A stretch of 64,000 nt of DNA from the IMG/VR virus record IMGVR_UViG_3300035034_002799, positions 21,207-85,206 of that record. One strand, 5' to 3'. The notes under the pieces are model-generated. The model had not been told where the DNA came from. It worked only from the letters and a program-made list of their open reading frames with translations, and ran no database searches. Positions 2,818 to 23,012 of this stretch are shown in pieces (position 1 is the stretch's first letter; the number at the start of each line of letters is the position of its first letter). Position numbers and translations under genes: made by a program. The DNA is from a virus.

Positions 2818-3948
2818 ATGAAAACAGCAATAATGATACCAGCTCGCTCAGGGAGTAAAAGAGTTCCGAATAAAAATTTAAGACTATTAAGTGGGAAACC
2901 ACTAATTACTTACGTTATTGAAACTTGTCTTAAAACGGATTTAGACGTTTGGGTGAATACAGACGATTTAAAGATTATTAATATGTGCCAAGATTTATTC
3001 CCAGAAGTAAATATCTTTAAAAGAAAACCTGAACTTTGTTCAGATACTGCTACTAATGATGATTTTATGTTGGATTTTATGAACAAAGAATTACGTTACA
3101 GTCATTTTCTTCAAGTCCTACCAACTTCTCCATTTGTAACTTTAGATGAAATTAATAATTTTGTATTGGCTATGAAAAGTCACGATACCGTTGTTTCAGT
3201 AAAAAATGCTCAAATTGGATGTGTATATGGTGACAGACCAATTAACTTCTCCAAAGATAAAAAGAACCCACCCTCACAGGAAATGACTCCTATCGGAATT
3301 TATGCCACTTCTTTAATGGGTTGGGAACGAACCACTTTTATTGATAATATGAATGAACTAGGCTGTGCGTATCATGGTGGTTTAGGATCAATAAAGTATT
3401 TTGAGCTTAGTGGGTTCTCTACTATTGATATTGACAACGAATCAGATTTTTTACTAGCAGAAGCGGTTGCTCAATTTATCCCTTTTCAAAGTCTCTATAA
3501 AAAGTTCTACTATGAAGATGGACAGTATATCGACTATTTTGTACCCAGAGTACTGAAAGATGATGGTATTGAAAAAACCACAGAAGTTAAACCAAACCAG
3601 AGAGTGGTTAGTGTTACTAATTTAATGCAAGAAATGACAGACCAAGAAGCTTGGTATAAGACAATTGTAGACTCCGATAGTAATTCGTGTACAGTGGTTA
3701 ATCAAATGCCAGGAGAAGGTAACCGCCGCCATTATCACGCTAAGTGGAATGAGTGGTGGTATATTATTAGAGGTCAATGGAGATTCGATATTGAAGATGA
3801 GTCATATGTCGTAAAAGCTGGTGACTTAGTGTTTATTGAAAAGGGGAATAAACATCAGATAACGGCAATTGGTAATACCATTGCTTCTAGGTTAGCAGTG
3901 TCAAGATATGACGTTGAACATATTTATGCGGAGAAGCCAATTAGATGA
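2818..3948 (+). CDS. Acylneuraminate (CMP-ulosonate) cytidylyltransferase fused to C-terminal cupin
   Basis: IPARSGSKRVPNKN, PTSPF and IDIDNESDF (NeuA/CMAS family); cupin HYHAKWNEWW...GNKHQI. Confidence 0.85.
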   Translation: MKTAIMIPARSGSKRVPNKNLRLLSGKPLITYVIETCLKTDLDVWVNTDDLKIINMCQDLFPEVNIFKRKPELCSDTATNDDFMLDFMNKELRYSHFLQVLPTSPFVTLDEINNFVLAMKSHDTVVSVKNAQIGCVYGDRPINFSKDKKNPPSQEMTPIGIYATSLMGWERTTFIDNMNELGCAYHGGLGSIKYFELSGFSTIDIDNESDFLLAEAVAQFIPFQSLYKKFYYEDGQYIDYFVPRVLKDDGIEKTTEVKPNQRVVSVTNLMQEMTDQEAWYKTIVDSDSNSCTVVNQMPGEGNRRHYHAKWNEWWYIIRGQWRFDIEDESYVVKAGDLVFIEKGNKHQITAIGNTIASRLAVSRYDVEHIYAEKPIR

Positions 3949-4265
3949 GCTTTGTACATCACAAAACTAATGGTAAAAAACTAGGAGCGAAACTTCTCTT
4001 TGAGGGAGAAGACTATTCGGTCTATGTTATCAATGAAAAAGAAGGGAAAGTAATACCCAATCATATGCATAGTCATTGGGATGAATCATGGTATATTATT
4101 AATGGATTATATAGCATTACAATTGAAGGTAAGAATGTTTTTGCTTACCCAGGTGATTTTATTACAGTAGAGAGAAATACTCGACATTCTATTAGATGTG
4201 CATCAGATAATGCCACTCGTCTTGCTATTTTCAAAAAAGATGTGGGGATTGAGTATGAAGATTGA
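3945..4265 (+). CDS. Cupin domain protein
   Basis: HMHSHWDESWY...GD...NTRH metal-binding cupin motifs. Confidence 0.85.
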   Translation: MSFVHHKTNGKKLGAKLLFEGEDYSVYVINEKEGKVIPNHMHSHWDESWYIINGLYSITIEGKNVFAYPGDFITVERNTRHSIRCASDNATRLAIFKKDVGIEYED

Positions 4266-4962
4266 TTTTACGGGAAAGAGGGTTTTAGTTACTGGAGGAA
4301 GTAAGGGTATTGGTAAGAAACTCGTTGAAGATTTTAATAGTTTGGGTGCTGATGTGTATTGGACGAGTACTAAAAAAGTTTGCAACCTAAAGCATTGGCA
4401 AGTTGATCTTACAAATTATAATGAAACTATAGAATTTATAAAATGGATTAAGACTATGGAATTTGATATTCTCATTAATAATGCAGGTACTAATAAGATT
4501 GGACCTATTGAAGAATATGATATAAGGGACTATGAACAAATAATCAACCTAAACCTAACATCGTGTTTCAAAACAACACAAGCGGTTATTCCTCACATGA
4601 AAGAAACTAGTTGGGGGCGAATTGTGAACATTACTTCAATTTCAAGTGAGATTAGTATGCCTCTTCGTTCTGCTTATTGTTCGAGTAAATTTGGCTTACT
4701 TGGTTTAACAAAAGCTTCTGCTGTCGAATTGGCTAAATATGGTATTTTAGTAAATTCAGTTGGACCAGGGGTTACTGAAACAGAATTAACAGTTGATGTA
4801 CTTGGCAGAGAAAAGATGAACGAAATAGCATCTAATGTACCTATAGGTCGTTTAGCTACTGTTGATGATATTTCAAAAACAGTCATGTTTATGTCAAGTG
4901 ATTTAAATACTTATATGGTAGGTCAAAACGTTATTGTTGATGGGGGGTATACTTGTGTTTAA
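4255..4962 (+). CDS. SDR family NAD(P)-dependent oxidoreductase
   Basis: TGGSKGIG, NNAG, YCSSK, VDGG. Confidence 0.92.
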   Translation: MKIDFTGKRVLVTGGSKGIGKKLVEDFNSLGADVYWTSTKKVCNLKHWQVDLTNYNETIEFIKWIKTMEFDILINNAGTNKIGPIEEYDIRDYEQIINLNLTSCFKTTQAVIPHMKETSWGRIVNITSISSEISMPLRSAYCSSKFGLLGLTKASAVELAKYGILVNSVGPGVTETELTVDVLGREKMNEIASNVPIGRLATVDDISKTVMFMSSDLNTYMVGQNVIVDGGYTCV

Positions 4963-6004
4963 AGTTAAATCATATAAAGGGATATATAAGGTAGAAACTA
5001 TTGATCATTTAACTTTCGATGATAATAAAGGTGATATTATAGTAGTTGATTCTTTTATTTGGGATCAATATATCTCAGTACTAAACCACATGGATATATT
5101 TGATGCTTCTGTATATGTATTAGAAACAACCGAAGAAACTAAAACGTTAGAAGAATCACAAAAGTTAATAGATAAGATGATTCAGATTGGCTTTAATAAG
5201 AGTAATAAACTTATTGCTGTTGGTGGCGGTGTTATTCAAGACCTTGTATCGTTTACAGCCTCTATATATTCAAGAGGTGTTGATTGGGTGTTTTATCCTA
5301 CCACTCTTCTCGCTCAATGTGATAGTTGCATAGGAAGTAAGACTTCCATAAACTACAAAGGCAGTAAAAATAAGTTGGGAGGGTTTCATCCACCTAAAGA
5401 GATTTATATTTACCGAAAGTTTCTTGAAACACTTCCAGAGTCAGAGATAAAATCAGGCATTGGGGAAATGCTACATTATTTTTTATTGGACCATAATTTT
5501 GACATATCAGAAAAGATGGTCAATGATGAAAATGTTTTAGAAAATATAGAAGAGTATGTAAAAGAAAGTCTCTCAATAAAAAAAGAAATGATTGAAAAAG
5601 ACGAGTTTGATAAAGGAGAACGTAACTTATTTAATTACGGTCATACTTTTGGACACGCTATCGAATCAATCAGTAACTATGAAGTCAATCATGGACAAGC
5701 AGTTACATTGGGAATGGAAATAGCTAATAGAATTTCATTAAAAAAAGAGTTAATCTCAAAAGATGTTTATAAAAGACTTAATAATATACTTATAAAAAAT
5801 ATACCTAACTATGGAATCAATAATAACGATAAATACGTACAAGCTCTTAATAACGATAAGAAAAACATTAGTAATAACTTAACATGTATATTACTCACAA
5901 GTGAATATGCTATAAAAACAGAAATTGCCTACGAAGATGTAGTGGAGGTGATTAATGAGTTATTTGGGGATAATTTAAATTATCCCATAGATTTTATGAT
6001 TTGA
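4955..6004 (+). CDS. AroB/3-dehydroquinate synthase-related sugar-phosphate cyclase or phospholyase
   Basis: GGGVIQD, PTTLLAQCDSCIGSKT, NYGHTFGHAIE, HGQAV; GTG start overlaps the SDR stop. Confidence 0.85.
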   Translation: MFKVKSYKGIYKVETIDHLTFDDNKGDIIVVDSFIWDQYISVLNHMDIFDASVYVLETTEETKTLEESQKLIDKMIQIGFNKSNKLIAVGGGVIQDLVSFTASIYSRGVDWVFYPTTLLAQCDSCIGSKTSINYKGSKNKLGGFHPPKEIYIYRKFLETLPESEIKSGIGEMLHYFLLDHNFDISEKMVNDENVLENIEEYVKESLSIKKEMIEKDEFDKGERNLFNYGHTFGHAIESISNYEVNHGQAVTLGMEIANRISLKKELISKDVYKRLNNILIKNIPNYGINNNDKYVQALNNDKKNISNNLTCILLTSEYAIKTEIAYEDVVEVINELFGDNLNYPIDFMI

Positions 6005-6011
6005 GGTTTAT

Positions 6012-6791
6012 ATGAAAGTTTATAGTTTAACAAAGACACTAGATGATTACGTTGATTTTTATATTAACGACCCTTCCGAAGCGGAAGTTATTGTTGTTGG
6101 TGGGTCAAGTATTGATCTCGAAAAATTTCCTAAACTCAAATACATATTTAAGTGTGGAGTTGGGGTAGATAATATACCAGACCTTAAAGACACTGGTGTT
6201 AAATTGATTATGCCTTCCGAATTGACAAAAATCAAAATTTACGATGAGGTTTCTTCATTTGCTGTATTTTTAATTTTACAATCTCATTATAGAAAATTAG
6301 GTAATGTTTCTAAATGGGAAAAAGAAGAAAGAAAAACACTTTCTGATAAATCATGTCTAACAGTAGGGAGCATGGGTAATATTGGTAGATTTGTTTTTGA
6401 CAAATTAGAAGATTTGTTTAAAGATAATGTTGGATTTGATGTGAATTCTTTTTTCCATACTACATTAGAAAAGGAAATGAAGTCGGCAGATATTGTAACC
6501 CTTCATTGTCCTCTTACTGATGGTAATAGAGGAATGATAAAAACAGAATGGCTTAAAGATGATGTGATATTGGTTAATACCGCAAGAGCAGAATTAGTAG
6601 ATGAAAATGAATTATATGAATTCCTAAAAAGTAACCCAAAGGCAACTGCCGCATTTGACGTATTTTGGGAAGAACCATATAAAGGTAAACTACTAGAACT
6701 TGATAACTTCATTGCCACACCACACGTTGCAAGTATGGGTGATGGTTTTCGTAAAGGTCTGTATAGAGACTTGATGGAGTTATTAAAATGA
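6012..6791 (+). CDS. D-isomer 2-hydroxyacid dehydrogenase (PGDH-like)
   Basis: GVGVDNI, LHCPLT, LVNTARA, DVFWEEP, TPHVAS. Confidence 0.9.
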   Translation: MKVYSLTKTLDDYVDFYINDPSEAEVIVVGGSSIDLEKFPKLKYIFKCGVGVDNIPDLKDTGVKLIMPSELTKIKIYDEVSSFAVFLILQSHYRKLGNVSKWEKEERKTLSDKSCLTVGSMGNIGRFVFDKLEDLFKDNVGFDVNSFFHTTLEKEMKSADIVTLHCPLTDGNRGMIKTEWLKDDVILVNTARAELVDENELYEFLKSNPKATAAFDVFWEEPYKGKLLELDNFIATPHVASMGDGFRKGLYRDLMELLK

Positions 6792-7756
6792 AAATTGGGA
6801 TAATTGGATATGGTAAAATAGGAAAGATTAGACATGAGGTTTGTAAACAACTAATACCTAATGCTGAATATATGATTTATGATCCAAACGAAGAAACCAA
6901 TTGTAAGAGTAGTCAAGAAGTAATAGATAAGACAGACCACGTATTTATTTGCACGCCAAATTTTTTAACCTCTGATTTAACTATAAAATGTTTAATGGCT
7001 GGTAAGAATATTTTTTGTGAAAAACCACCAGCATTAAATTATGATGAGTTGCTTGAAGTTAATTATGCATACAGTAAAAACCGTAATTTGACTTTATTGT
7101 ATGGATTTAATCATCGCCAATACGACAGTATTCAAAAGATGAAAGAGTTTATTGACAGTCAAGAAACTGGAAAAATTTTATGGATGAGAGGAAGGTACGG
7201 AAAGGCAATGGGTGATCCTAATACTACAGGATGGAGAGCAGACCCTAAAAAATGTGGAGGTGGTATTCTTTTAGACCAAGGTATTCATATGTTAGATTTA
7301 ATGAATTGGTTTGGTGGGGATTTTGATACAGTTCAATCCGTCATAACAAATAATCTTTGGGGTATTGAAGGAATAGAAGATAATGCATTTTTAAATCTTT
7401 ATAATAGCTCGGATAACATTTCAGCATCGCTCCATTCGACGATGATAGAATGGAGACATATATTTTCATTAGAAATTGTTTTAGAACGAGGATATGTTGC
7501 TCTCAATGGTTTAAAGACTCCATCTGGGTCTTATGGTAAAGAAGAGTTAACCATATGTAAAGACAAACATTTTGATTCCGATACGTCCACTAAAGAAACT
7601 ATAGAGTTTAAGAACAATGATACTTGGTACAAGGAAGTACAATTATTTTTTGATAGTATTTTATCTGGAAAAAATAAAACTAATATAGAAGACGCGCTTG
7701 AAGTAATGAGGTTGATTAAGGAGGCTTATAATGGTATTAATGAAAAGACTCCCTGA
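6788..7756 (+). CDS. Gfo/Idh/MocA oxidoreductase
   Basis: GIIGYGKIG, CEKPP, GFNHR, GGGILLDQGIHMLD. Confidence 0.92.
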   Translation: MKIGIIGYGKIGKIRHEVCKQLIPNAEYMIYDPNEETNCKSSQEVIDKTDHVFICTPNFLTSDLTIKCLMAGKNIFCEKPPALNYDELLEVNYAYSKNRNLTLLYGFNHRQYDSIQKMKEFIDSQETGKILWMRGRYGKAMGDPNTTGWRADPKKCGGGILLDQGIHMLDLMNWFGGDFDTVQSVITNNLWGIEGIEDNAFLNLYNSSDNISASLHSTMIEWRHIFSLEIVLERGYVALNGLKTPSGSYGKEELTICKDKHFDSDTSTKETIEFKNNDTWYKEVQLFFDSILSGKNKTNIEDALEVMRLIKEAYNGINEKTP

Positions 7757-8963
7757 AGATTTTTATAAAGATAAAAAAGTAATTGTTATTGGACCGTCAG
7801 AAGGTGCTCCTAAAGAAGTTGAACAAGTTAACCTAGATGATTATGATTATGTTATAAGACTAAACGATCATTTTTACGACTCTGATAAACATGGTCTAGG
7901 TAAAAGAACTGATATAATTTATCATTCTCTTCTTAGTGGTCAATATAATAAAGACCATCTAACTTATTTAATAAAACACAATATTAAACTTATTGCTAGA
8001 TACTGTAGTCCTAATAAAAAAATTGATGGTTATTTAAGAATGTGTGGAGACGAAACCCCAGATTGGTATCTTTTTAATGAAGGAAGAGCCAAACGCTGTC
8101 CTATTGTATTAAAGTGTTGTCCAAGTACTGGAATTCTTGCAATATATGACGCATTAACGGATGGCGCTAAAGAAGTAGCTGCTTTAGGTTTCGATTTTTA
8201 TGAAACATTTTACACTGAGCGTCCTATAGAAACTATGAAACCAAAATCAATAAGCCGTATTATAAATGGTAACCATCGCCCAGCGACCCAACTTAGAAAT
8301 TTTACTAAATGGGCTATGTGTAATAGAAGATTCAATCCAATTGGTAGATTTAAAGAACTTTTTGAAAGGGAGAAAATGATCATGAGTGAAGAAAAATTAT
8401 TTCTTAAAAATAGAGTACAGGATGCCGCTAGAGCATCGCTTAATTTAGAATTGACGAGCGCATATGAATTCGCAGAAAAGATTTTTGAATTGAGGAAATC
8501 AGGTAAGAAAGCTATTTTCATGGGTAATGGTGCTTCGTATACTATCGCAAACCACGCTGCTCTTGATTATATGAGCCAACTGGGTATTCAGACGTTATGC
8601 GCAGCAGACCAAGCAGTTCTTACTGCGTTTGCTAATGATTTTGGGTATGACCACGCCTTAGAAAGATACTGTAAGATTAACTATAAAAAAGGTGATATTT
8701 TAGTTTGTGTTAGTTCAAGTGGTAACTCACCAAATGTAGTTAACGCTGCTAAATGGGTCAAAGCTCAAGGAGGAACTGTTGTTACGTTTACTGGATTTGA
8801 GCAAGATAATAAATTATCTGAGATAGCAAGCAGTAACTTTTGGGTAAACAGTAAAGTATATAACATAGTTGAATCTGTTCATAATCTTTGGCTAGCTATG
8901 ATTTGTGATCTTATGATTGAATGGATGGGTGATGGTGTAGGTACTCACGGTATTAATATATGA
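7731..8963 (+). CDS. GT29-like (sialyltransferase-like) domain fused to GmhA-like SIS phosphosugar isomerase
   Basis: N-term DDYDYVIRLN...GKRTD, PSTG...GFDFY; C-term GNGAS, ANDFGY, SSSGNSPNV, VESVH; AAGGAGG RBS. Confidence 0.75.
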   Translation: MVLMKRLPEDFYKDKKVIVIGPSEGAPKEVEQVNLDDYDYVIRLNDHFYDSDKHGLGKRTDIIYHSLLSGQYNKDHLTYLIKHNIKLIARYCSPNKKIDGYLRMCGDETPDWYLFNEGRAKRCPIVLKCCPSTGILAIYDALTDGAKEVAALGFDFYETFYTERPIETMKPKSISRIINGNHRPATQLRNFTKWAMCNRRFNPIGRFKELFEREKMIMSEEKLFLKNRVQDAARASLNLELTSAYEFAEKIFELRKSGKKAIFMGNGASYTIANHAALDYMSQLGIQTLCAADQAVLTAFANDFGYDHALERYCKINYKKGDILVCVSSSGNSPNVVNAAKWVKAQGGTVVTFTGFEQDNKLSEIASSNFWVNSKVYNIVESVHNLWLAMICDLMIEWMGDGVGTHGINI

Positions 8964-9004
8964 TAGACACGAACACATAAGATAAATTTTATATCATCTA
9001 GATG

Positions 9005-9012
9005 TATAAATA
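9005..9012 (+). promoter_or_regulatory. T4-type late promoter TATAAATA
   Basis: Exact consensus, intergenic, upstream of ATG 9035. Confidence 0.7.
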
Positions 9013-9034
9013 AAAGTTAATAGGTAGGTTAATT

Positions 9035-9238
9035 ATGAGTGACACATTAGAAACATTGGCAGAATACTCCAAAAACAAAAATGGTTTGATAATAGGACCA
9101 TCTTCAAATGTTTTACAAGACGTTCGAGGAATTGATGTTGATGGATATGACGTAATTGTTAGATTGGACGGTCATTATAATAGGAAAGATAAAAGGCTTG
9201 TACCACTAGGTATATTTAGGAATTTATTAAATGACTAA
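9035..9238 (+). pseudogene. Truncated paralog of the GT29-like domain
   Basis: IIGPSS...DVDGYDVIVRLDGH matches VIGPSE...NLDDYDYVIRLNDH of 7731; ends after 67 aa. Confidence 0.65.
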
Positions 9239-9982
9239 AAAATGTATTATAATGGGAAATGGTCCATCGCTTAATAATGTAAATATAGATGATTTACGTG
9301 GTGTTGATACATTCTCTTTTAATAGAGCTTATATAGCATATAAAGAATGGGATTTTTATCCTACATATTTTGCATGTATTGATTGTAGAACTTTTAGAAC
9401 TATATATGACGACTTGAAAAATCTTATTGATTCTGATAACCCCATTAAGAAATATTTTACGGCTCCGTGGGGTAATATGATTAATGGGATCGAACAAAAA
9501 AATAAAATCGTTCAGACTGATTATACAAATGTCAATGCGATAGAAGACTCATCTTTATGTTTTGGTCAGTACAGTGACTTGAGTTTTCCTAATTTATTCA
9601 AAGGTACATGTCCGTTAGATAATGTTAGTATATGGGCGGTTCAGTTTGCCTACTTAATGGGTTACACTCATGTTGGTATGGTTGGGGTTGATTGTCGTTA
9701 TGTTCCTAGATCAGATGTTAGGCAAATTGAAGGGGGGGGGATTGTGAATTTACTTCTGATGAAGACCCAAATCATTTTAGATCAGATTATTTTGGTAAAG
9801 GGTCGATAACAACTCACCATCATTTGAATAATGGTGTGGCTGGTAATAATTTAGGTGTGTGGGAAAAGTTGAAAGCTAGTTATGTTAAACAAAATGAATT
9901 TAAACTATATTCTTGCACTGAAGGCTCCAGAGTAAATAGGATTTTTAATTATCTACCACTTAAAAAATTATTGGAGTTATAA
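9231..9982 (+). CDS. Maf/DUF115-type glycosyltransferase interrupted by a G9 tract (frameshift at 9732-9740)
   Basis: MGNGPSLN, FSFNR, FAYLMGY...GVD; the -1 frame after the tract gives DPNHFRSDYFGKG...LYSCT to TAA 9982. Confidence 0.75.
9732..9740 (+). repeat. Homopolymeric G9 tract
   Basis: Directly visible; the longest G run I saw in the window. Confidence 0.95.
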
Positions 9983-10641
9983 ATAATTAACTTCAATATA
10001 TTTAGTTAGGGCTTTTATGCATTCATCAGTAGGGTGCCATGCCAAATCTTTAAACATTTTTCCATTATATGACTTAGCAAAATCTTCTAAGTCAACTGAA
10101 TTATGAAAAATACTATGAAGCTCTGGGTAGCTTATGTGATTTCCGTAAATATTCTTAGTTGGTTCTTTATCACCTTCTCCTCCCCACCAAGCTCCAAAAT
10201 GACACAAAATATGAATTTCACTTGGGGGAATCTTTGATAATATCTTAACCATTTTACGAAGAACCTATTCTGAATATCGGTAACTATTTCATTTTTCAAC
10301 AACTTATTGTCTATATACCATTTATCTGGGTTATTTAAAGATTTTAAATATAAAGAATGATTCATTTTTTTAGAGTAAAAATCATTATCTTCAAGCTTAA
10401 GATTGTCTTCCATCCAGTGGTTTATAGTATTAAAGGCTAATGATCTAAAAGGTAAAACAAAAACATGATCGCATTTTTTGCTTGCGTTTATTGTAGCATC
10501 TATCATTTTTTCGTGAAATATAGGCATTGATGTTGCCCCAAAAAAAGAGTTATAATTCCATCCAGTGGGTGAGAATAATGATTTTGGTAATTTTTGCATC
10601 CATGCAACATGCGAGCAACCGACGAATGATTTTACTGACAT
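9977..10641 (-). pseudogene. SGNH/GDSL-like hydrolase split by an apparent 1-nt frameshift near 10205
   Basis: N-half has FVGCSH, C-half has KDLAWHP; the two overlapping ORFs join as IF(W)CHFG if one G is restored. Confidence 0.55.
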
Positions 10642-10687
10642 ACAAACGATCCTTATGTTATAATTATATCAGAAAGAGTGTTAAAAT

Positions 10688-12751
10688 ATGAAAAAAGCAT
10701 TAATCACGGGGATCACAGGACAAGACGGTAGTTACTTAACGGAACTGTTACTGGATAAAGGATATGAAGTACATGGAATAGTCCGTAGGTCTTCGTCTTT
10801 CAATACAGGTAGGATTGATCATTTAGTATCTGATCCTAAATTGTTTAATAAAACGTTACATCTTCATTTTGGTGACCTAACAGACTCAACTAATATTGAC
10901 GAATTAATACGAACTATAAAGCCAGATGAAATTTATAATTTGGGCGCTCAATCTCATGTCAAAGTATCCTTCGAAGTTCCAGAATATACGGCAGATGCTA
11001 ATGCTATGGGACCACTAAGAATTTTAGAAGCTATGAAGAAGCATTGCCCTAATTCTAAGTATTACCAAGCTTCAACCAGTGAGATGTACGGTGGCGTAAC
11101 AGAAGAGATGCCTGAAAAGGGATATAATGAAAACTCTCCCTTCCATCCCAGATCACCATATGGTGTAGCAAAGCTCTATGGACATTGGATTGCTCGTAAT
11201 TACCGAGAGTCTTATAATATGTTTATAGTTTCGTCTTGCCTGTTTAATCATGAATGTTTCGATTCCAATACCCCGATAACTATAAAGAACGGCGAAACAA
11301 TAGATGTCGTTTATATGAGAGACTTCTTACCAGAAAGAAAAGATATATCTAAAGATAATAATATTCTAATCGGAGATTTTTCTAATGAAAATATAGAAGT
11401 ATGGAATGGTAGCGGATATACTAAATTAAAAACTATAACTAGGCGCAAAATAAAAACCTTAGATACTGAAAATAGAAACAAAGTGGTCTCTAATACTAGA
11501 AATGGCTCAGTAGTTACTACACCCCATCACAATTTTCTAATAGGTCAGAAAAAAATACCACAGAGACAACTCAACTTACATGATGAATTAGATCATGGGG
11601 GGTTACCGAAACTAGGTAATCATATTAAAATCACTGAGGCGGAAGCTAAATTTTTAGGAATGTTAGTAGGAGACGGTCATATATGTTCATCTGGTCATGT
11701 TCGTTTGGCGAACCTAGATCACGGTGAAACCTTTAAAGATTTATGCCGATTTCTATTTCCAGTCTTCAATATCAGAGAAGCTAACTACGCATCTGGGTAT
11801 GGTGACAATACTAGACATCATAACGTGTCAGGTATTAGCAGTCATTTAGGTAAATTTTATAGGTCAGAAATATACGACGAACGCACAAAACATAAAAAAG
11901 TACCAAAGCGTATATTAAATTCTTCTTTGGAAGTAAAAACAAAATTCTTGGAGGGATATTATCTTTGTGATGGGTTAAAAAAAGACAAATGTACATATAA
12001 ATTTAAGTCTTTTAAATCCAACTCACCACTATTATGTCAGGGTCTTATTTTACTTATGAATGAGGTAGTTGAAGGTTTCAAATTTAATATTAATACTTTT
12101 GAACAAAACAGTAGATTGTATAATCAAGTAAACATACATAGTGATAAAAAAGGAGATAAAGGACTACATTTGATAAAAAATAATAAAGAACTTAAAAAAG
12201 AGATCATATTAGATGAGTCTAATTGTTTTGTATATGACATAGAAACTGAATGTGGTTACTTACAAGCTGGGGTAGGTTCTATGGTGTTGGCTAACTCACC
12301 ACGTAGAGGTGATACATTCGTAACCAAAAAGATTACAAACTGGTGTAAAAAATGGAAAATGAACCCCAATGAAACTGAGCCGCTTGAATTGGGTAATTTA
12401 TACGCTTATCGTGATTGGGGTCACGCTAAGGACTTTATGAATTGTGTGTATTTAATGATGCAACAAGAAACTCCAGAAGACTTCGTAATAGCTACTGGTG
12501 AAACATACACCGTTAAGGATTTCGTTGAAGAGTGCTTTAATCAATTGGGAGAATCAATAACTTGGAAAGGTGAAGGTATTAATGAAGTAGGACTGGTAAA
12601 TAATAAAACAGTAGTAAAAATCAATCCTAAATACTTCCGTCCTGCTGAGGTGGATATTTTGTTGGGTGATTCATCAAAGGCTCGTAAGAAGCTTGGATGG
12701 ACCCCTGAGTATAATTTTAAAACGCTTGTTAAAGATATGTTGGATAACTAA
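10688..12751 (+). CDS. gmd: GDP-mannose 4,6-dehydratase containing an intein
   Basis: [47 protein letters not shown]; extein is 340 aa. Confidence 0.95.
11255..12295 (+). mobile_element. Intein (347 aa) with LAGLIDADG homing endonuclease in gmd
   Basis: Starts CFDSNT; TTPHH block B; LGMLVGDG and LEGYYLCDG; VYDIET; ends VLAN before Ser+1. Confidence 0.92.
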
Positions 12752-13329
12752 TGACTGAACACGAAAGATGGCTTAAAGATAACGGTGAAGAAAAGCGTTT
12801 AACATACCCATTAAACACCAAAAGTCTTTACGTGGATTTTGGTGCTTATGACGGTAAATTCGCTAGAAAGATTTATGATAAATTCAAATGTCAGATAATT
12901 GCTTATGAGCCTATTCCTAAATTTTTGGATTTATGTGAGAAAAACTTAGAAGGTACAGATGCTACTGTTTTGCCTTATGGTGTTGGTAAAGAAAATATCC
13001 AATTATATGTAGAAGATACTAATGATGCCACCCATCTTTTTTCTAAAGGTAATATTAAAATTGAAGTTAGAGATGTTTATAATCTTATAGGTAAAGATGA
13101 TATAGACCTTCTAAAAATTAATATCGAAGGTGCTGAATATGATGTCTTAGAGAGAATGATCGAAACTGATTTATTAAAAAACGTTCGTTATCTTCAAGTT
13201 CAGTTTCATAAATTTCCTCATGTTGAACGACCAGTGGAAAGAAGACAAAAGATTTGGGAAGAACTTCAAAAAACTCATAAATGTCAATGGTCTTATGATT
13301 TTGTTTGGGAGAGTTGGGAGAGAAAATGA
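12751..13329 (+). CDS. FkbM family methyltransferase
   Basis: DFGAYDG, YEP, IDLLKINIEGAEY, LQVQFH. Confidence 0.88.
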   Translation: MTEHERWLKDNGEEKRLTYPLNTKSLYVDFGAYDGKFARKIYDKFKCQIIAYEPIPKFLDLCEKNLEGTDATVLPYGVGKENIQLYVEDTNDATHLFSKGNIKIEVRDVYNLIGKDDIDLLKINIEGAEYDVLERMIETDLLKNVRYLQVQFHKFPHVERPVERRQKIWEELQKTHKCQWSYDFVWESWERK

Positions 13330-14252
13330 ATAAAGGCGATGTTATTTATGTAACTGGTTCTACTGGTCTGGTAGGTAGTGCTATTATGAGAAAACTAAAA
13401 GAAGAAGGATTTACTCAAGTTTATGGAGCTTCAAGAGCTAATGGTTGTGATTTGGGAGATGTTAACTATGTAAAAGACATTCTATGGCATGTACGTCCAA
13501 AATACATATTCCATTGTGCGTCTATGGTTGGTGGAATTGGTAAAAACATTAAATACCCCGCCGACTTTGGTTTAACTAATTCCCGAATAAACAATAATGT
13601 TATTGAATGGGCTAGGGTTGTTAATGCTAAACTGTTATTTCTAGGTTCTTCTTGTATCTACCCCAGAGAATGCCCACAACCAATGAAAGAAGAATATCTT
13701 ATGACTGGTCCATGTGAACCAACCAATGAGATGTATGCTCTATCTAAGATTTATGGCATTAAAATGTGTCAGGCGTATCGTAAACAATACGGTAATAATT
13801 TTATTACTTGTCAGCCTGCTAATATATATGGGGTAGGGGATCACTTCGATCCTGAAAACGCTCATGTTGTGGGTTCTCTTATTAGTAAATTTCACAAAGC
13901 AAAGATCGAGAAGACACCTGTTGAACTTTGGGGTGATGGTTCAGCAATGAGAGAATTATTATATGTTGATGATGTTGCTGATGCTTGTTTGTTTCTTATG
14001 AACAATTATGACGGGGAAGAATTAATCAATGTTGGAACTGGTATTGATATTACTATAAAAGAATTAGCAAATATGATCAAGAAGGTTGTCGGGTATGATG
14101 GGCACATTCAATGGGATGTTCTAAAGCCTAATGGAATGCCCCGCAAAGTTCTAGATGTAGCAAAAATTCATTCAATGGGATGGGAACATAAATTTGACCT
14201 TGACAAAGGAATAGAAAAGACTTATAATTGGTATTTGGGGAATATAATATGA
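13326..14252 (+). CDS. fcl: GDP-L-fucose/colitose synthase (epimerase-reductase)
   Basis: GLVGSA, VGGI, FLGSSCIYP, YALSKI, WGDGSAMRE. Confidence 0.92.
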   Translation: MNKGDVIYVTGSTGLVGSAIMRKLKEEGFTQVYGASRANGCDLGDVNYVKDILWHVRPKYIFHCASMVGGIGKNIKYPADFGLTNSRINNNVIEWARVVNAKLLFLGSSCIYPRECPQPMKEEYLMTGPCEPTNEMYALSKIYGIKMCQAYRKQYGNNFITCQPANIYGVGDHFDPENAHVVGSLISKFHKAKIEKTPVELWGDGSAMRELLYVDDVADACLFLMNNYDGEELINVGTGIDITIKELANMIKKVVGYDGHIQWDVLKPNGMPRKVLDVAKIHSMGWEHKFDLDKGIEKTYNWYLGNII

Positions 14253-15082
14253 TTAACGTTATTATGTATAGTTTTGACCGAGCTTGTCAGTTAGATTTAG
14301 CGTTAAGGTCAATAAAAGATCACTTTGCGGAATGGCAAAGTTGTACATGGACTATTATTGTAAAGTGTAGTAACGATGAATATTCAAAAGGATATTCAAG
14401 AGTTAGACAACTTCATCCTGAAAGGCAATTTGAATTTGTTCATGAGATTAATTTTAGAGATGATACCCGCCGAGCTTTTAATAAACCGAATAAACCCTAT
14501 ACTACATGGATGATGGACGATGATGCGTTTATTAGACCGTTCTCATTACAGGATCAACAATTTAAGGATTTCGCAAATAATCAAGAGATCACTACTTTAA
14601 GTTGTAGACTAGCACCATATATGAACGAATGTTACACACAATCAAGAAAAGCATTAGTTCCTGATCTTACCGAAAATTTAACATGGAACTGGCGTAATTC
14701 ATCCAAATTAGATTTGTTTCATGGATACCCTACTGATTGGGGGTATCCTATGTCAATTGCTAGTTTCCATATTTTTAGAACATATCAAATAGCAAGTACT
14801 GTTAATAAAGTAATATTTAAAGCACCTAATTCTCTTGAAGGTCAGTTAGCTCTTAATCCTCCTGCTGGTGACTATATGATGTGTTACCCAAGAGCTTTAA
14901 ATATCAACATTCCTATTAATAAAGCCCAAACTGAAAATGGTAATCGTTTTGGTAATAAATCTCATCTTCAACAAGATGTCCTCAACCGAGAATTTATAGT
15001 AGGAAAAAGATTATCTACTGATAAAGTATATGGAGCAGTCACACCTAGCCCTCATTATGAATTAGATTTGGAGTTTGAATGA
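14249..15082 (+). CDS. Putative GT-A glycosyltransferase
   Basis: SFDRACQL, MMDDD, WGYPMS, PNSLEG; located in the sugar operon. Confidence 0.55.
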   Translation: MINVIMYSFDRACQLDLALRSIKDHFAEWQSCTWTIIVKCSNDEYSKGYSRVRQLHPERQFEFVHEINFRDDTRRAFNKPNKPYTTWMMDDDAFIRPFSLQDQQFKDFANNQEITTLSCRLAPYMNECYTQSRKALVPDLTENLTWNWRNSSKLDLFHGYPTDWGYPMSIASFHIFRTYQIASTVNKVIFKAPNSLEGQLALNPPAGDYMMCYPRALNINIPINKAQTENGNRFGNKSHLQQDVLNREFIVGKRLSTDKVYGAVTPSPHYELDLEFE

Positions 15083-16242
15083 AATACCCACTTGCAACTG
15101 AAACATGGACAGACATCGAAAAAAAGGTAGCTAAAGATGTCATTGATAGTGGCATGTGTACTATGGGTAATATAACAAAAGAATTTGAGGCTAAATTTGC
15201 TGAATTTTTCGGAAGCAAATATGCAGTATTTAGTAACTCTGGTTCTTCAGCTAACCTATTGGCAGTAGCTGCATTAGTTCATAAATATAATTTACAACGA
15301 GGAGATGAAGTCATTGTCCCTGCGGTATCTTGGAGTACTACATATTATCCATTACAACAGTATGGTTTGAAATTAGTTTTTGTAGACGTAAACGAAAACG
15401 ATTTTAATATTGACATTGACGAAGTAACAAAAGCATTAACACACAAAACGAGATTAATTGTTGCAGTTAATCTTCTTGGTATGTCATGTAATTTTGGTGC
15501 GCTTGAGCATATTTGTAAATCTAAAAACATTATCCTTATGGAAGATAATTGTGAGTCAATGGGTGCTACATATGAAGATAAGTATTGTGGTGCGATTGGT
15601 GAAATAGGAACTTTTAGTACTTTTTTCTCACATCATATATGTACTGTCGAAGGTGGTGTTACAGTAACTAATGATGAGGAACTTTATCATTTAATGCTTT
15701 CAATTCGTTCTCATGGATGGACTCGACATCTACCAGACAATAATCATATTGAAAATAAAACGGGTGATTCTTTTTATGATTCTTACCGTTTTGTGTTGCC
15801 TGGGTATAATCTTAGAAATAATGACATTTTTGCTGCTATAGGTTTAGAACAACTTAAGAAATTACCTGAATTAGTTTCTAAAAGAATAGAAAATTGGGAT
15901 TATATGGTTTGTTCACTACAATATATCAACGTTAGTAATTTAAAACTTCAATGGACCAATGACGACCGCAGTAGTTCGTCTTGGTTTGGTTTCGGTTTCA
16001 TTTATGATGGGGATAGAGACTCTTTAGTTAAAACCCTCACTGAAGAAGGTATTGATACCCGTCCTATCGTAGCTGGTAACTTTTGCAAAAACCCTGTGAT
16101 TCAATATATGAATCACAGGATTGTAGGTGACTTACCTATTGCTAATTTAATTGATAAACAAGGTTTCTTTGTTGGTAATAACGGAAGTTCCTTGAGTTCT
16201 CAAATTGATCATTTTATTAATATTATTTCGAAAAATGCTTGA
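15079..16242 (+). CDS. colD: ColD-type GDP-4-keto-6-deoxymannose 3-dehydratase (DegT/DnrJ family)
   Basis: NSGSSANL, EDNCES, FSTFFSHHICTVEGG (His in place of the PLP Lys), RSHGWTR, PGYNLR, RPIVAGNF. Confidence 0.82.
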   Translation: MKYPLATETWTDIEKKVAKDVIDSGMCTMGNITKEFEAKFAEFFGSKYAVFSNSGSSANLLAVAALVHKYNLQRGDEVIVPAVSWSTTYYPLQQYGLKLVFVDVNENDFNIDIDEVTKALTHKTRLIVAVNLLGMSCNFGALEHICKSKNIILMEDNCESMGATYEDKYCGAIGEIGTFSTFFSHHICTVEGGVTVTNDEELYHLMLSIRSHGWTRHLPDNNHIENKTGDSFYDSYRFVLPGYNLRNNDIFAAIGLEQLKKLPELVSKRIENWDYMVCSLQYINVSNLKLQWTNDDRSSSSWFGFGFIYDGDRDSLVKTLTEEGIDTRPIVAGNFCKNPVIQYMNHRIVGDLPIANLIDKQGFFVGNNGSSLSSQIDHFINIISKNA

Positions 16243-17101
16243 TTATAAACTCAGCAAAGTTAGCTTCGCCAAGTAACTTATCTTGTGCTACTTTTGTAGA
16301 CTTGTTATTTACGAACTGGTCGGTATTATAGTAAGCATTTTTTATTGTATTAAATATATCATTTACGTCATCACTAAGCTTATAGTGAGTCTCTTCTCCA
16401 AAAACATGATGACAGTGGTTAGCTCCCCAATATAAAGGAACACAATCACATATGATAGGATCAACAAATTTCTCAGTTATCCAATAAGGCATTCTTTTAT
16501 TTTCAATAGCGATATTCATTTTATAATCTCTAAAGGCTAAAGTCTTATCTGCTATTTCTCCTTTAACTCTTCCGTCTAGTGGATAAAGTTCACGACTACC
16601 TCTCCCATAAACATGAATATCCATATCGCTTGCTAAAATCTTTTTGATCAAACCATGGCGAAGATTGTGACCAGGTAAGAATTTCTTATTAGATGCAATA
16701 ATACTCATTTTCTGCGGTTTTTCTGGATTAGTATATCCAGAAAAATCTTTTACTAAAGGGATGTTTGGTAAGAATGTATACCATTCTTTTATATTAGGAC
16801 CGTTCATATAACGAAGATCGTAAACAAAATAGGTTCCTACATGTTTATCAACCCACTCTCTATATTTGTTCATATCAATAAGTTCATATACTTCTTGATG
16901 AAAACCCACCACGTTTTCTTTAGGTACTTTAAGTTGTGGGAGTTTACCATGATTGAAAATACACGCATGGGTATAGCTTTCATCATCAACAACCGTAATA
17001 TTTTTGTAAGTAGTATTACCTAATCCCCAAGATTTAAATGCACCTTTAGCTACAGTAGGAGTGGTATAATCTGAAAATATTTTAAGCCTTATTTCTTGCA
17101 T
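16223..17101 (-). CDS. GT10-like fucosyl/colitosyltransferase
   Basis: YKMNIAIEN...WITEKFVD...VPLYWGA. Confidence 0.8.
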   Translation of the reverse strand: MQEIRLKIFSDYTTPTVAKGAFKSWGLGNTTYKNITVVDDESYTHACIFNHGKLPQLKVPKENVVGFHQEVYELIDMNKYREWVDKHVGTYFVYDLRYMNGPNIKEWYTFLPNIPLVKDFSGYTNPEKPQKMSIIASNKKFLPGHNLRHGLIKKILASDMDIHVYGRGSRELYPLDGRVKGEIADKTLAFRDYKMNIAIENKRMPYWITEKFVDPIICDCVPLYWGANHCHHVFGEETHYKLSDDVNDIFNTIKNAYYNTDQFVNNKSTKVAQDKLLGEANFAEFIIKHFSK

Positions 17102-18233
17102 TGGTATGTTCCCATGTTTTAATGTATTCTTTTAGTTCGGTAATTGTCATTTTTAAAACTTTTTCATGTTCTCTTATATTATTCCTATAAAGAGGATTTG
17201 AATATGTACTATTTTGAGTTATCATATGATCTACATGATAAAGATAACCTTCTAATGAATCAACTTTATAACCTAGTTTTTTAACTCTATGTAATCTTTC
17301 CTGGTCTTCTGGACCCCATGAAATCATGTTTTCATTTTCCATCCCAGCTTCAATAAATTTTTCTCTATTCATAAAGAAACATCCACCAGGAGGAATTCCT
17401 TGGTGAATAATCCCAGTTAACGAATCTACAATATCAAGATTGAGAGTTTCTCTTATTATTCTAAAGTCTTTCTTAAATATGTGTTTGAGAGGTTTATTAA
17501 AAGGATAACAAAAATCAAGTTTACCTGAACGAATAGCTTCAGCCGCCGCGACATATTTATCTGGTTGCATAAGAACGTCAGAATCGTAACTAACAATAAT
17601 AGGAGTAGTTACTAATTCAGCCATCTTATTAAGTATTCTTGTTTTATAAAAGTAGTCGGTTTTGTTTTCAATGAAAAGACAGCGAACATAAGAGTTCCAT
17701 TCTGGTTTCCAAAAATCCTTAATGTTTATTTTCTTACCGCTTTCACATATAATAATATTAGTATTAAAATATTTACCTAAGTAGTCAATAATTAAAGTTA
17801 GATTGTTTTTTCTGTCTTGTGATTCTATACCAACAGGTATAGTAAAAGTTACGTCAGATAGATCAATTTTCCCACTATTTTCCATTTTTTTATTTCCTTT
17901 TAATACTTTATATTCTATAGTATTTGTTTCAGCTTTTTCTTTTTCTATTACTTGTTTTTCAGTTTCGACGTCTTCTACATATACTTCTATGGGCGTTTCG
18001 TCTTTTATTATGACATCTTCAATATTCACTTCTGTAGGTAGAGATAATTTTCTTAAACTATTACGAACTTCTATATTAGGTACCGTTGTATCTTCATCTG
18101 ATAATTTTAGTAAACCCTTATAACTAGAAAAGAATTCAGGACCATTAATAGTTTGCTGGGGAGCGACTACTATTCTTCGACCGTGATGTAATATTCTAAT
18201 TTTACGGCGTGATGTGTTTTTAAATTCTGCCAT
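17082..18233 (-). CDS. GT2/GT7-like glycosyltransferase with N-terminal extension
   Basis: YDSDV, GGCFF, GMENENMISWGPEDQE, LYHVDH. Confidence 0.85.
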   Translation of the reverse strand: MAEFKNTSRRKIRILHHGRRIVVAPQQTINGPEFFSSYKGLLKLSDEDTTVPNIEVRNSLRKLSLPTEVNIEDVIIKDETPIEVYVEDVETEKQVIEKEKAETNTIEYKVLKGNKKMENSGKIDLSDVTFTIPVGIESQDRKNNLTLIIDYLGKYFNTNIIICESGKKINIKDFWKPEWNSYVRCLFIENKTDYFYKTRILNKMAELVTTPIIVSYDSDVLMQPDKYVAAAEAIRSGKLDFCYPFNKPLKHIFKKDFRIIRETLNLDIVDSLTGIIHQGIPPGGCFFMNREKFIEAGMENENMISWGPEDQERLHRVKKLGYKVDSLEGYLYHVDHMITQNSTYSNPLYRNNIREHEKVLKMTITELKEYIKTWEHTNARNKA

Positions 18234-18245
18234 TATTACTCCGTT

Positions 18246-19022
18246 TTAGTCCTTGAGCCACTTCCAAGATTTAATGTATTCATTTAGTAAATTCTTGTTC
18301 ATTTGACTAACCTTAACCCATTCCTTTTCGTTCTTTTTATAAAAAGGATGTGAATTAGTAGCACTGTTAGGACTTGATCCGTGACTCATATGAAAAAGTG
18401 GACCTTTAAGTCGATTAACATTCAGCCCCATAGTTCTTGCTCTATAGTCTCTTTCAGTATCTTCAAACCCCCAAGATACAAAGTTTTCATTTTCCATACC
18501 AACACTAATGAATTTTTCTTTTGACCAGAAAATAGCACCACCAACCGAATCTGCTTTAGGTCGAAGGTTTCTACATACAGTTTCTGGAACATCTAGAGTT
18601 AAACTATTTCCTAATTTATGAACATGTGTTGCTGGTACATCCAGAAAGTTACCATTATATGGAAAAATTAAATCACTAAAACCGTTGCGAATCATTGTAG
18701 CTGCTTCGACATATTGTTCAGGTTGTAAAAGCACATCAGTATCATAGTTTACAATAATTGGCGTGGTTGCTAATTTTGCCATATAATTAAGCATCATAGT
18801 ACGATGAAACCATTGGCTTTGGGTTTTCATAAAAATATACTTATAATCTATACCTTCATCAATATGTTGTTTAGCTTTTGATTCGGTGTCCATTTCGCAT
18901 ATCATAATATTTGTTTTAAGATGTTTTTTCAAATAACGGGTCATAATATTTAGATTACGACCACGGTCTGGTTGGTCTATTTTTACTGGAATTGTAAAGG
19001 TAACGTCACTTAGGTCTAACAT
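18246..19022 (-). CDS. GT2/GT7-like glycosyltransferase, paralog of 17082
   Basis: DLSDVTFTIPV, YDTDV, GMENENFVSWGFEDTE, FHMSH. Confidence 0.85.
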   Translation of the reverse strand: MLDLSDVTFTIPVKIDQPDRGRNLNIMTRYLKKHLKTNIMICEMDTESKAKQHIDEGIDYKYIFMKTQSQWFHRTMMLNYMAKLATTPIIVNYDTDVLLQPEQYVEAATMIRNGFSDLIFPYNGNFLDVPATHVHKLGNSLTLDVPETVCRNLRPKADSVGGAIFWSKEKFISVGMENENFVSWGFEDTERDYRARTMGLNVNRLKGPLFHMSHGSSPNSATNSHPFYKKNEKEWVKVSQMNKNLLNEYIKSWKWLKD

Positions 19023-19740
19023 GTGTATACTCCGCACTAATAGGTATATGAATTTTAGGGACTGCTCCGTGATAAATTCTTGCATTATGTTGTATGTATT
19101 TCTTTTTGTCCGATTCGTCAATAACAGAAGGGGTATGAATCCAATCAATATAAGGAGTAGATTCCATTACATGGAAATGCTCTTTAGGATGATACATTCC
19201 AGCCATTCTACATCTGCGTGTATAATCGGCATGTTCATATCCATATCTATTATAACGCTCATCGAAGGCACCCACTTGGTTTAAACATTCTTTTGTCATT
19301 ACCATTAGGACTCCGTTTACATAAGCACCGCATAGACCCAAATGAATTGATTCATACTTAAGAGCCTTCTTTATCATTTTTCTGTAGTCAGAAACAATAT
19401 AATTCATATGCTGAAACCCAGATTGTTCGATTGCTCTAAGATACACATCAATCCACCCTGATTTTTTAAAGCAGATATCATCCTCACTTATGAATACAAC
19501 ATCATTATCTTTTAAAAAATGGAGAAGTCTATTCTTATTAACAGGGATACCACTGTTAGGTCCATGAATAAGACCAAAATTTTCGGCAATCCATTCATAG
19601 CCTGTGGTATCATGGTCATCTACTGAACAAATAGTCTGTATCTCGTGTTTATTCTTATCTGTGGTCTTAAGAATATCTTCACATACTTTAGTTGCCAAGT
19701 CTGGTCTTTTATATGAACAAACCCCAATTCCGATCTTCAT
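19006..19740 (-). CDS. GT2 family glycosyltransferase
   Basis: SYKRP, VDD, SEDD, GAFDERY..YGYEH. Confidence 0.85.
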   Translation of the reverse strand: MKIGIGVCSYKRPDLATKVCEDILKTTDKNKHEIQTICSVDDHDTTGYEWIAENFGLIHGPNSGIPVNKNRLLHFLKDNDVVFISEDDICFKKSGWIDVYLRAIEQSGFQHMNYIVSDYRKMIKKALKYESIHLGLCGAYVNGVLMVMTKECLNQVGAFDERYNRYGYEHADYTRRCRMAGMYHPKEHFHVMESTPYIDWIHTPSVIDESDKKKYIQHNARIYHGAVPKIHIPISAEYTHVRPK

Positions 19741-22917: not shown

Positions 22918-23012
22918 GATTTTACTTTTTATAGGAAAGAAAAAAGTATAATGAAATGTCACATGGCGGTAATAAATATCATGCACGAACCAATATTAGG
23001 AGGTATCAGAGA

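Follow-up and report, generated by a model that had tools for sequence, protein, structure and literature searches.

What does a phage make with a homologue of the primary-metabolism enzyme AroB that sits among genes for sugars activated by cytidine monophosphate (CMP)? The question is raised by positions 2818–8963 of a 64,000-nucleotide stretch, bases 21207–85206 of the linear 85,206-base IMG/VR record IMGVR_UViG_3300035034_002799 (the window in what follows). The virus is a T4-like myovirus from a water metagenome, and its record is an estimated ~42% complete. We give about an even chance to the reading that 2818–9952 is a module that makes, CMP-activates, and transfers an unusual acidic sugar resembling sialic acid or 3-deoxy-D-manno-octulosonate (Kdo), with its phosphate lost through elimination by the AroB-like enzyme and reduction by a short-chain dehydrogenase/reductase (SDR).

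An initial annotation, made from the letters alone, had described seven tightly packed genes at 2818–8963, and all seven open reading frames are indeed intact and lie on the plus strand. They are translationally coupled, with 4- to 29-base overlaps or 1- to 8-base gaps (junctions 3945/3948, 4265/4267, 4934/4962, 6004/6012, 6788/6791, and 7731/7756), and an eighth gene follows. Domains were assigned with Pfam and NCBIfam models:

2818..3948, plus strand: NeuA/KdsB-type cytidylyltransferase (residues ~1–220) fused to a metal-binding cupin (~290–360); Pfam CTP_transf_3 71.1 bits (cut-off 22.6), Cupin_2 50.3 bits
3945..4265, plus strand: stand-alone small cupin, 106 aa; Pfam Cupin_2 1.5e-10, weak MannoseP_isomer match
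4267..4962 (alternative upstream GTG start 4198), plus strand: FabG-like SDR of the classical type; Pfam adh_short 157 bits
4934..6004, plus strand: AroB-like enzyme, TIGR04425 family; Pfam DHQ_synthase and DHQS_C
6012..6791, plus strand: short-form D-2-hydroxyacid dehydrogenase; Pfam 2-Hacid_dh_C 99.7 bits (NAD domain)
6788..7756, plus strand: Gfo/Idh/MocA sugar oxidoreductase; Pfam GFO_IDH_MocA N- and C-terminal domains, EKP motif
7731..8963, plus strand: predicted sialyltransferase-fold (GT29/GT42-like) domain (residues 1 to ~215) fused to a GmhA-like SIS_2 domain (~245–400; SIS_2 match at residues 247–355)
9231..9952, plus strand: MptE-like (Maf/DUF115-type) putative CMP-sugar transferase, the eighth cassette gene; Pfam MptE-like 6.4e-6, 26.5 bits (cut-off 34.6 for PF01973)

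The SDR translation shows TGxxxGIG, NNAG, and YxxxK motifs; other catalytic motifs in the cassette include PARxxSxRxxxKN, the Arg/Glu/His triad of the 2-hydroxyacid dehydrogenase, and GNGxS/SxSGxSxN. The closest solved relatives of the cytidylyltransferase domain are NeuA enzymes (9t4z, E 1.2e-14), and mouse CMP-Neu5Ac synthetase (1qwj) aligns to residues 4–216, the whole catalytic domain. Scores nevertheless lie below the substrate-specific equivalog cut-offs (PseF 67 bits vs. 205.7; KdsB models 31–50 vs. 155–281). The sugar isomerase (SIS) domain scores 45.4 bits on Pfam SIS_2 (cut-off 27) and 67.1 bits on the gmhA model TIGR00441, below that model's cut-off of 209. Among solved structures, the 2-hydroxyacid dehydrogenase is nearest to phosphoglycerate dehydrogenases, glyoxylate reductases, and 2-ketogluconate reductase, with 4-phosphoerythronate enzymes also among the nearest; its short form recurs in two related loci, L004 and L005. 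The Gfo/Idh/MocA protein has inositol, levoglucosan, and C-glycoside-3 dehydrogenases as solved relatives, and the small cupin may, by analogy, be an isomerase or epimerase.

The AroB-like enzyme and its gene company

To judge from its sequence, the AroB-like protein is not a housekeeping dehydroquinate synthase (DHQS). Its best NCBIfam model is TIGR04425 (376.6 bits, cut-off 400), a hypothetical equivalog named [quoted passage not shown] and it scores lower on the aroB model TIGR01357 (268.1 bits, cut-off 305; E 1.1e-79). A word-indexed search with the protein returned 5878 proteins at E ≤ 0.001 among 8000 scored, true AroB included. The best 120 of these were 45–100% identical; two of them, 45–47% identical, carry the TIGR04425 name in NCBI, and the annotation of the Joint Genome Institute (JGI) calls homologues "3-dehydroquinate synthase." Viral stretches encoding a relative of the AroB-like alignment number 175.

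With the family alignment as query, 80 loci from genomes and 80 from viruses were retrieved to sample the family, and their encoded proteins were aligned. A clade of 90 loci (76 distinct proteins, 9 bacterial and 67 viral) shares Gln102, Cys132 (Ala in one locus), and Ile133 in nearly all members; this signature is a definition made here and not by the model's curators. The remaining 71 genome loci encode true AroB, which has Gly, Ser/Ala, and Val at these positions and lacks the signature in 71 of 71. Invariant in clade and true AroB alike are R114, D130, K136, N146, E178, K216, R230, N234, H237, H241, H253, and K309/K310, which match by motif the DHQS residues for the metal, NAD+-linked oxidation, and phosphate. 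We take the roles of individual residues, including the Arg and Lys that bind the carboxylate of 3-deoxy-D-arabino-heptulosonate 7-phosphate (DAHP), from structural work on the Aspergillus nidulans enzyme. Because these catalytic and phosphate positions are invariant, the AroB-like enzyme has very probably retained both the binding of a phosphorylated keto-acid sugar and the elimination of its phosphate. The nearest solved structures are DHQS (3clh, 8e-53), followed at a distance by BtrC (1e-33), ValA (1e-24), and DDGS (2e-22).

The clade is divided at position 181, which is Lys in true AroB. His181 occurs with phage cytidylyltransferase–cupin/aminotransferase cassettes (27 loci), and Lys181 with loci of an HpcH and thiamine-pyrophosphate (TPP) enzyme type (27) and with bacterial loci of a Gfo/2-hydroxyacid-dehydrogenase type (9). 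Three loci, the window among them, combine His181 with Gfo and the 2-hydroxyacid dehydrogenase.

Gene company separates the clade from true AroB. Of 76 distinct clade loci, 66 have an SDR gene no more than 300 bp from the AroB-like gene, vs. 1 of 71 true AroB loci, a co-occurrence that far exceeds chance. Neighbors were counted by tblastn of the window proteins against all loci, using distinct loci only (9 bacterial clade, 67 viral clade, 71 true AroB):

SDR within 300 bp: bacterial 9/9; viral 57/67; true AroB 1/71
Gfo: bacterial 7/9; viral 4/67; true AroB 0/71
2-Hydroxyacid dehydrogenase: bacterial 6/9; viral 3/67; true AroB 1/71
GmhA-like SIS: bacterial 8/9; viral 36/67; true AroB 0/71
Cytidylyltransferase: bacterial 5/9; viral 32/67; true AroB 0/71
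Class-III aminotransferase: bacterial 0/9; viral 28/67 (adjacent in 16); true AroB 0/71
GT29-like or MptE-like gene: bacterial 0/9 at the threshold used; viral 28/67; true AroB 0/71
GDP-mannose 4,6-dehydratase (GMD) / Fcl / DegT: bacterial 1 / 0 / 4 of 9; viral 36 / 50 / 52 of 67; true AroB 1 / 1 / 0 of 71

The initial annotation had named a lack of conserved co-occurrence elsewhere as grounds for rejecting its proposal; co-occurrence was found in phages and in bacteria, so that refutation fails. Six of the enzymes are syntenic in bacterial loci of Verrucomicrobiae, Syntrophaceae, Undibacterium, Geopsychrobacteraceae, Zetaproteobacteria, and others, in orders that include SIS–SDR–AroB-like–CTP transferase–2-hydroxyacid dehydrogenase–Gfo. 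Pfam annotation of three bacterial loci places the cassette within glycan loci. One of them, L010, has it in a flagellar island that reads FlgK, flagellin-like, FliW, PseB-like, DegT, Gfo, SIS, CTP transferase, SDR, AroB-like, 2-hydroxyacid dehydrogenase, methyltransferase, GT2, GT61, and MptE-like; beyond these, the island holds two further MptE-like genes and, 22 kb from the AroB-like gene, a NeuB-family synthase. A NeuB fusion, a second SIS_2 gene, and a CTP_transf_3 gene lie upstream of L007. No shikimate genes were seen in the AroB-like loci that were annotated. The seven genes do not form a single fixed set: Gfo and the 2-hydroxyacid dehydrogenase are a bacterial-type accessory pair, in whose stead most phage relatives have a class-III aminotransferase, and the window joins the bacterial-type enzyme set to the phage-type cytidylyltransferase–cupin fusion.

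A third type of cassette (L133 and L109, ~6456–12192) sets SDR and AroB-like genes beside a TPP-dependent enzyme, an HpcH/HpaI aldolase, and a DegT aminotransferase and is without the cytidylyltransferase–cupin fusion; it comprises 27 distinct loci, with Lys181 in all.

An optional two-gene module and the transferases of the cassette

The cytidylyltransferase–cupin fusion is kept in phages. An alignment of it retrieved 69 viral loci encoding 40 distinct full-length fusion proteins, whose loci divide into 25 with an AroB-like gene, 10 without one although their flanks span 6 kb or more in each direction (AroB-negative), and 5 undecidable. An SDR gene is present in 25/25 AroB-positive vs. 0/10 AroB-negative loci, GT29-like genes occur in both (21/25 and 8/10), and the two states are interleaved on the fusion-protein tree. 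The AroB-like and SDR genes are an optional two-gene module of an otherwise same cassette.

One pair of phages shows what can stand in the module's place. L207 and L222 are near-identical: 13 flanking proteins are 98–100% identical, and their cytidylyltransferase, aminotransferase, FkbM, and GT29-like proteins are 81–93% identical. In the interval bounded by an orthologous GmhA-like SIS gene (97.5% identical) and a GT10-like gene (88%), L207 carries the AroB-like and SDR genes (14383–16754, minus strand; TIGR04425 score 376.8) and L222 a single phosphatase-like gene of 178 aa (12463–13591, minus strand). The 178-aa protein has no Pfam match at 0.05; it contains DFDG and GDDLYD motifs, matches the Bacteroides phosphatase of Kdn-9-P (the 9-phosphate of the nonulosonic acid Kdn; 3e81, 9e-9) and KdsC (1j8d, 1.4e-7) among solved structures, and on NCBIfam finds KDN-9-PPhBT (1.6e-14) and KdsC (1.6e-8), all under cut-offs. 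By these sequence matches it belongs to the KdsC/Kdn-9-P phosphatase family. Both phages also encode, 4–5 kb away, KdsA (309 bits, cut-off 242) and a KpsF/KdsD-type isomerase. Both carry an RfaE-domain-II-like nucleotidyltransferase as well. A phosphatase in sister cassettes was considered as a general rule and rejected: among the AroB-negative loci L176, L185, L200, and L206, a haloacid-dehalogenase (HAD) domain occurs only in L176, where it is fused to a nucleotidyltransferase.

The initial annotation had proposed a CMP-sugar pathway ending in a CMP-donor-type transferase, and this part stands, on the NeuA-like cytidylyltransferase and on the N-terminal domain of the 7731–8963 protein. That domain reaches 13.4 bits on Pfam GT29 (E 0.05), under the cut-off of 23, and a word-indexed homologue search with it returned its self-match alone. 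An exhaustive HMMER search found 237 relatives; Pfam GT29 matches 18 of the 41 that were aligned (best 3e-13), and His182 is nearly invariant in the family alignment. In a protein atlas the domain groups with viral GT29-like clusters (template modeling [TM] score 0.71). An AlphaFold model built from the relatives' alignment (pLDDT, the predicted local distance difference test, 89.9) resembles human ST6GalNAc2 and ST8SiaIII, a mammalian ST3Gal-type enzyme, and Campylobacter CstI and CstII in the Protein Data Bank (E 8e-6 to 1e-4, TM 0.4–0.55). As modeled, the domain has the sialyltransferase (GT-A variant) fold and is GT29/GT42-like. All characterized enzymes of this fold that we know of use CMP-ulosonic acid donors. 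In phage relatives, a separate GT29-like gene adjoins the cytidylyltransferase–cupin gene.

The MptE-like gene of the record is frameshifted at a run of nine G (9732–9740): tblastn matches with four MptE-like homologues resume in another frame beyond it. The tract is the sole G or C run of at least seven in the 64-kb window, and composition predicts 0.03 G9 runs. In a contig from another run, X2, which may belong to the same campaign as the source, the tract is two G shorter (G7), which restores the frame; two short contigs from a third run, X3, come together at this point. Phase variation and homopolymer assembly error both fit; the tract resembles the phase-variable tracts of Campylobacter maf genes. 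Elsewhere in the window, among structural genes, a 440-aa protein (55007–56329) weakly matches a PHROG alpha-2,3-sialyltransferase (5.8e-6) and Pfam MptE-like (0.0047), and may be a second or virion-associated CMP-sugar transferase.

Proposed phosphate elimination and its rivals

The pathway we favor begins with a ulosonate bearing a terminal phosphate. The initial annotation had seen no NeuB/KdsA-type synthase in the window, and this is true of the entire 85-kb record: Pfam NeuB, DAHP_synth_1, and HpcH_HpaI gave zero matches over this ~42%-complete record, and tblastn with phage KdsA, KdsD, NeuB, and the KdsC-like protein gave no match in the window. The substrate would come from a KdsA/NeuB-type synthase encoded off the record, in the host or in missing phage DNA, or possibly from sedoheptulose-7-P, with the GmhA-like SIS domain, Gfo, and the 2-hydroxyacid dehydrogenase converting it. 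Acting in the fashion of DHQS, the AroB-like enzyme would use bound NAD+ and a metal to oxidize the neighboring hydroxyl transiently and eliminate the phosphate, leaving a keto-deoxy intermediate rather than the terminal-hydroxyl product of a phosphatase. On a Kdo-8-P-like eight-carbon substrate, oxidation and elimination of this type should yield a tail that ends as a methyl ketone, and a six-membered carbocycle should not form. The translationally coupled SDR would then reduce the keto-deoxy intermediate, which the cupins may isomerize or epimerize; the NeuA-like domain would couple the sugar to CMP; and the GT29-like domain and the MptE-like protein would transfer it to a host surface glycan or protein, or to virion proteins.

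We favor elimination over hydrolysis because the elimination machinery is conserved, the enzyme has an obligate SDR partner, the module is exchanged for a phosphatase with near-same downstream enzymes, and the company is one of CMP activation and sialyltransferase folds. We consider it evenly balanced whether TIGR04425 enzymes at large represent a new activity of the DHQS superfamily, as ulosonate omega-phosphate phospho-lyases that with their SDR deoxygenate Kdo/Kdn-type tails at the last step.

Several observations weigh against this reading. The active site is nearly the same as that of cyclizing DHQS, and we know of no DHQS-family enzyme that halts before cyclization; the protein also scores slightly below the cut-off of TIGR04425 itself. 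Synthases are rare in the company of the module: KdsA was found in 2 and NeuB in 9 of 102 viral AroB-positive loci (retrieved flanks, not deduplicated), and neither was found by tblastn in any of 8 bacterial AroB-like loci. The phosphatase exchange is known from the one pair L207/L222, a KdsC-like gene occurs in 1 of 19 AroB-negative loci, and in another close pair, L174/L206, the module is absent with nothing replacing it. In this record the MptE-like gene has a frameshift, and roles for Gfo, the 2-hydroxyacid dehydrogenase, the SIS domain, and both cupins are suggested by family-level analogy.

How the substrate arises bears on the alternatives. For the bacterial-type set one may speculate about a route without a synthase, in which sedoheptulose-7-P is isomerized by the SIS domain, oxidized at C1 by Gfo, and oxidized at C2 by the 2-hydroxyacid dehydrogenase. 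The resulting seven-carbon ulosonate phosphate would fit a DHQS-like pocket, with cyclization then the default outcome. As a universal precursor route this was rejected, with Gfo in 4 and the 2-hydroxyacid dehydrogenase in 3 of 67 viral cassettes and L164 without both; for the bacterial-type version it may hold.

One rival reading is that the AroB-like enzyme cyclizes a DAHP-like heptulosonate 7-phosphate, after which the SDR would reduce the ring ketone and a quinate-like "carba-ulosonic acid" would be CMP-activated on its tertiary hydroxyl. All DHQS catalytic, metal, phosphate, and carboxylate-binding positions are conserved, DHQS is the closest solved relative (ahead of 2-deoxy-scyllo-inosose synthase and ValA), and cyclization of the DHQS enol intermediate is spontaneous. 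The route from SIS, Gfo, and the 2-hydroxyacid dehydrogenase would moreover fit the absent synthase, both in the record and in three of three annotated bacterial loci, where none lies within 9 kb. It is hard to reconcile with a carbocycle, however, that a plain phosphatase can take the module's place with the cytidylyltransferase, aminotransferase, and GT29-like proteins downstream still 81–93% identical, and that AroB-like and SDR genes are gained and lost among close relatives. Enzymes of the sialyltransferase fold pass through an oxocarbenium-like transition state, which an oxygen-free ring should be unable to form, and the KdsA of phage L207 would yield an eight-carbon substrate from which a six-membered carbocycle is not expected. 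The initial annotation had offered a deoxy-ulosonate or a carbocyclic sugar acid as the product; the optional module, the phosphatase exchange, and the sialyltransferase-fold company favor the former. We consider the carbocycle unlikely, yet it keeps an appreciable minority share because a seven-carbon substrate would cyclize by default.

A different fate for a cyclized product would be a C7-cyclitol or aminocyclitol made by an enzyme resembling the synthase of 2-epi-5-epi-valiolone (EEVS) or that of 2-deoxy-scyllo-inosose (DOIS), as a free secondary metabolite and not a glycan unit. The superfamily is the same, the GmhA-like isomerase suggests sedoheptulose-7-P, and aminocyclitols are typically tailored by Gfo/Idh/MocA enzymes and aminotransferases, a class-III aminotransferase being present in 28 of 67 viral loci. 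The protein is nevertheless nearer DHQS than ValA, DDGS, or BtrC and retains the invariant Arg and Lys that in DHQS bind the carboxylate of DAHP. Its cassette lies in glycan and flagellar islands, in company with NeuA-like cytidylyltransferases and with transferases of the sialyltransferase-fold or Maf type, and the module is without a kinase, a pseudo-sugar-type glycosyltransferase, or an exporter; we hold this reading to be improbable. The remaining proposal, an ordinary auxiliary DHQS that boosts the host's aromatic amino-acid synthesis and lies among sugar genes by accident, draws on the strong aroB match and on the JGI name of the homologues. A score that misses the aroB cut-off and is exceeded by that on TIGR04425, a clade signature missing from all 71 true AroB proteins, tight coupling to the SDR and sugar genes, and annotated loci in which no other shikimate gene was seen make it very improbable, and the placement of the enzyme in a CMP-sugar pathway, as first proposed, is borne out.

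Related systems, phage setting, and meaning

The closest known systems are the CMP-Kdo pathway (KdsD, KdsA, the HAD phosphatase KdsC, and KdsB) and the CMP-Kdn pathway (Kdn-9-P synthase, Kdn-9-P phosphatase, and CMP-Kdn synthetase). They follow the same logic of an SIS isomerase, a ulosonate phosphate, phosphate removal, CMP activation by a CTP_transf_3 enzyme, and transfer, and the likeness is direct in L207 and L222, with true KdsA and KpsF/KdsD genes in both and the KdsC/Kdn-9-P-type phosphatase in L222. The window differs in having the AroB-like enzyme and SDR in the phosphatase role, with no match to KdsA in the record or to KdsC in the window; in an isomerase that is GmhA-like and not KdsD-like; in the cupin fused to its cytidylyltransferase; and in the additional Gfo and 2-hydroxyacid dehydrogenase.

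With AroB itself (EC 4.2.3.4, TIGR01357), the AroB-like enzyme shares fold, Pfam domains, and catalytic, metal, and phosphate positions at 33–40% identity; it differs by its sub-cut-off score, Q102/C132/I133, the SDR neighbor, and the phosphatase exchange in one phage pair. The EEVS ValA, DDGS, and the DOIS BtrC are, like it, DHQS homologues working in sugar phosphate chemistry beyond the shikimate pathway (a superfamily treated in PMC4426668). They are more distant in sequence, and their contexts of kinases, pseudo-glycosyltransferases, and O-methyltransferase-oxidases are not seen in the cassette. The predicted fold of residues 1–215 of the 7731–8963 protein is that of GT29/GT42 sialyltransferases, from which it differs by its SIS fusion and sub-threshold GT29 score. 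Maf (MptE-like) proteins are flagellin nonulosonic-acid transferases, and phages as well as one flagellar island have MptE-like genes together with the cassette. The proposed chemistry also recalls the 6-deoxyhexose pathways (RmlB/GMD, the cupin RmlC, RmlD/Fcl), which share NAD+-dependent transient oxidation, beta-elimination, optional cupin epimerization, and SDR reduction to a terminal deoxy sugar. There the leaving group is water and not the proposed phosphate, the first enzyme has an SDR and not a DHQS fold, and the substrate is nucleotide-linked, which here it would not be; the likeness is one of analogy, not homology. As the initial annotation had supposed, no characterized pathway with this enzyme set came to light: literature searches of listings and abstracts returned no paper on the cassette and no description of TIGR04425. 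The pathway is akin to a known kind, with an enzyme activity that is probably new.

The phage context is plain from RegA translational repressor (1300–1698) and clamp-loader subunit (829–1260) genes, and the window further encodes primase-like, ribonucleotide reductase, NAD-dependent ligase, and gp5- and gp6-type baseplate proteins. The gp6-like protein has distant matches alone, mostly in cyanophages (24–39% identity over short parts), and a DNA search of a phage GenBank collection with the whole region gave no near or distant match. G+C content is 31–38% across the window, and the cassette region is unremarkable in composition. The ribonucleotide reductase frame (22956–26318) encodes 1120 aa matched by a PHROG in two stretches (414–939), so that an extra domain or intein is possible.

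The cassette makes up the opening third of a glycan island of 17 kb that reaches 19740, the remainder of which reads:

10688..19740: GDP-mannose 4,6-dehydratase, FkbM methyltransferase, GDP-fucose synthase, DegT/RfbH-like aminotransferase, GT10-like fucosyltransferase, three GT2/GT7-like transferases

The GDP-mannose 4,6-dehydratase (10688–12751) has a 347-residue insert from Cys190 to Asn536, following ...LFNHE (residue 189) and preceding Ser. By its LAGLIDADG-like motifs, the insert is an intein within the conserved NHES motif, and an intein-less homologue (L085:13828–14820) aligns on either side of it. From 12751 to 19740 come GDP-fucose genes, the GT10-like fucosyltransferase (16223–17101, minus strand), and the three GT2/GT7-like genes, which are galactosyltransferase-like, near the sialyltransferase-like genes. 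The relatives L104, L107, and L111 also carry GT11 and GT10 fucosyltransferases. The island looks designed for a fucosylated, "sialylated" oligosaccharide.

If the favored reading is true, a primary-metabolism enzyme, AroB, was co-opted to tailor sialic-acid-like sugars by eliminating phosphate. This would be a new reaction type for the DHQS superfamily and, for bacterial and phage glycobiology, a new class of deoxy-ulosonic acids made by an undescribed route that is spread in phages and in bacterial flagellar and glycan islands. The near-isogenic pair L207/L222 offers a clean experimental handle on it. The islands in which the AroB-like family is located are of the flagellin-glycosylation and O-antigen types, so that its members probably influence phage receptors, motility, and recognition by the immune system, and the phage studied here would decorate the surface of its host or its virion with a sialic-acid mimic.

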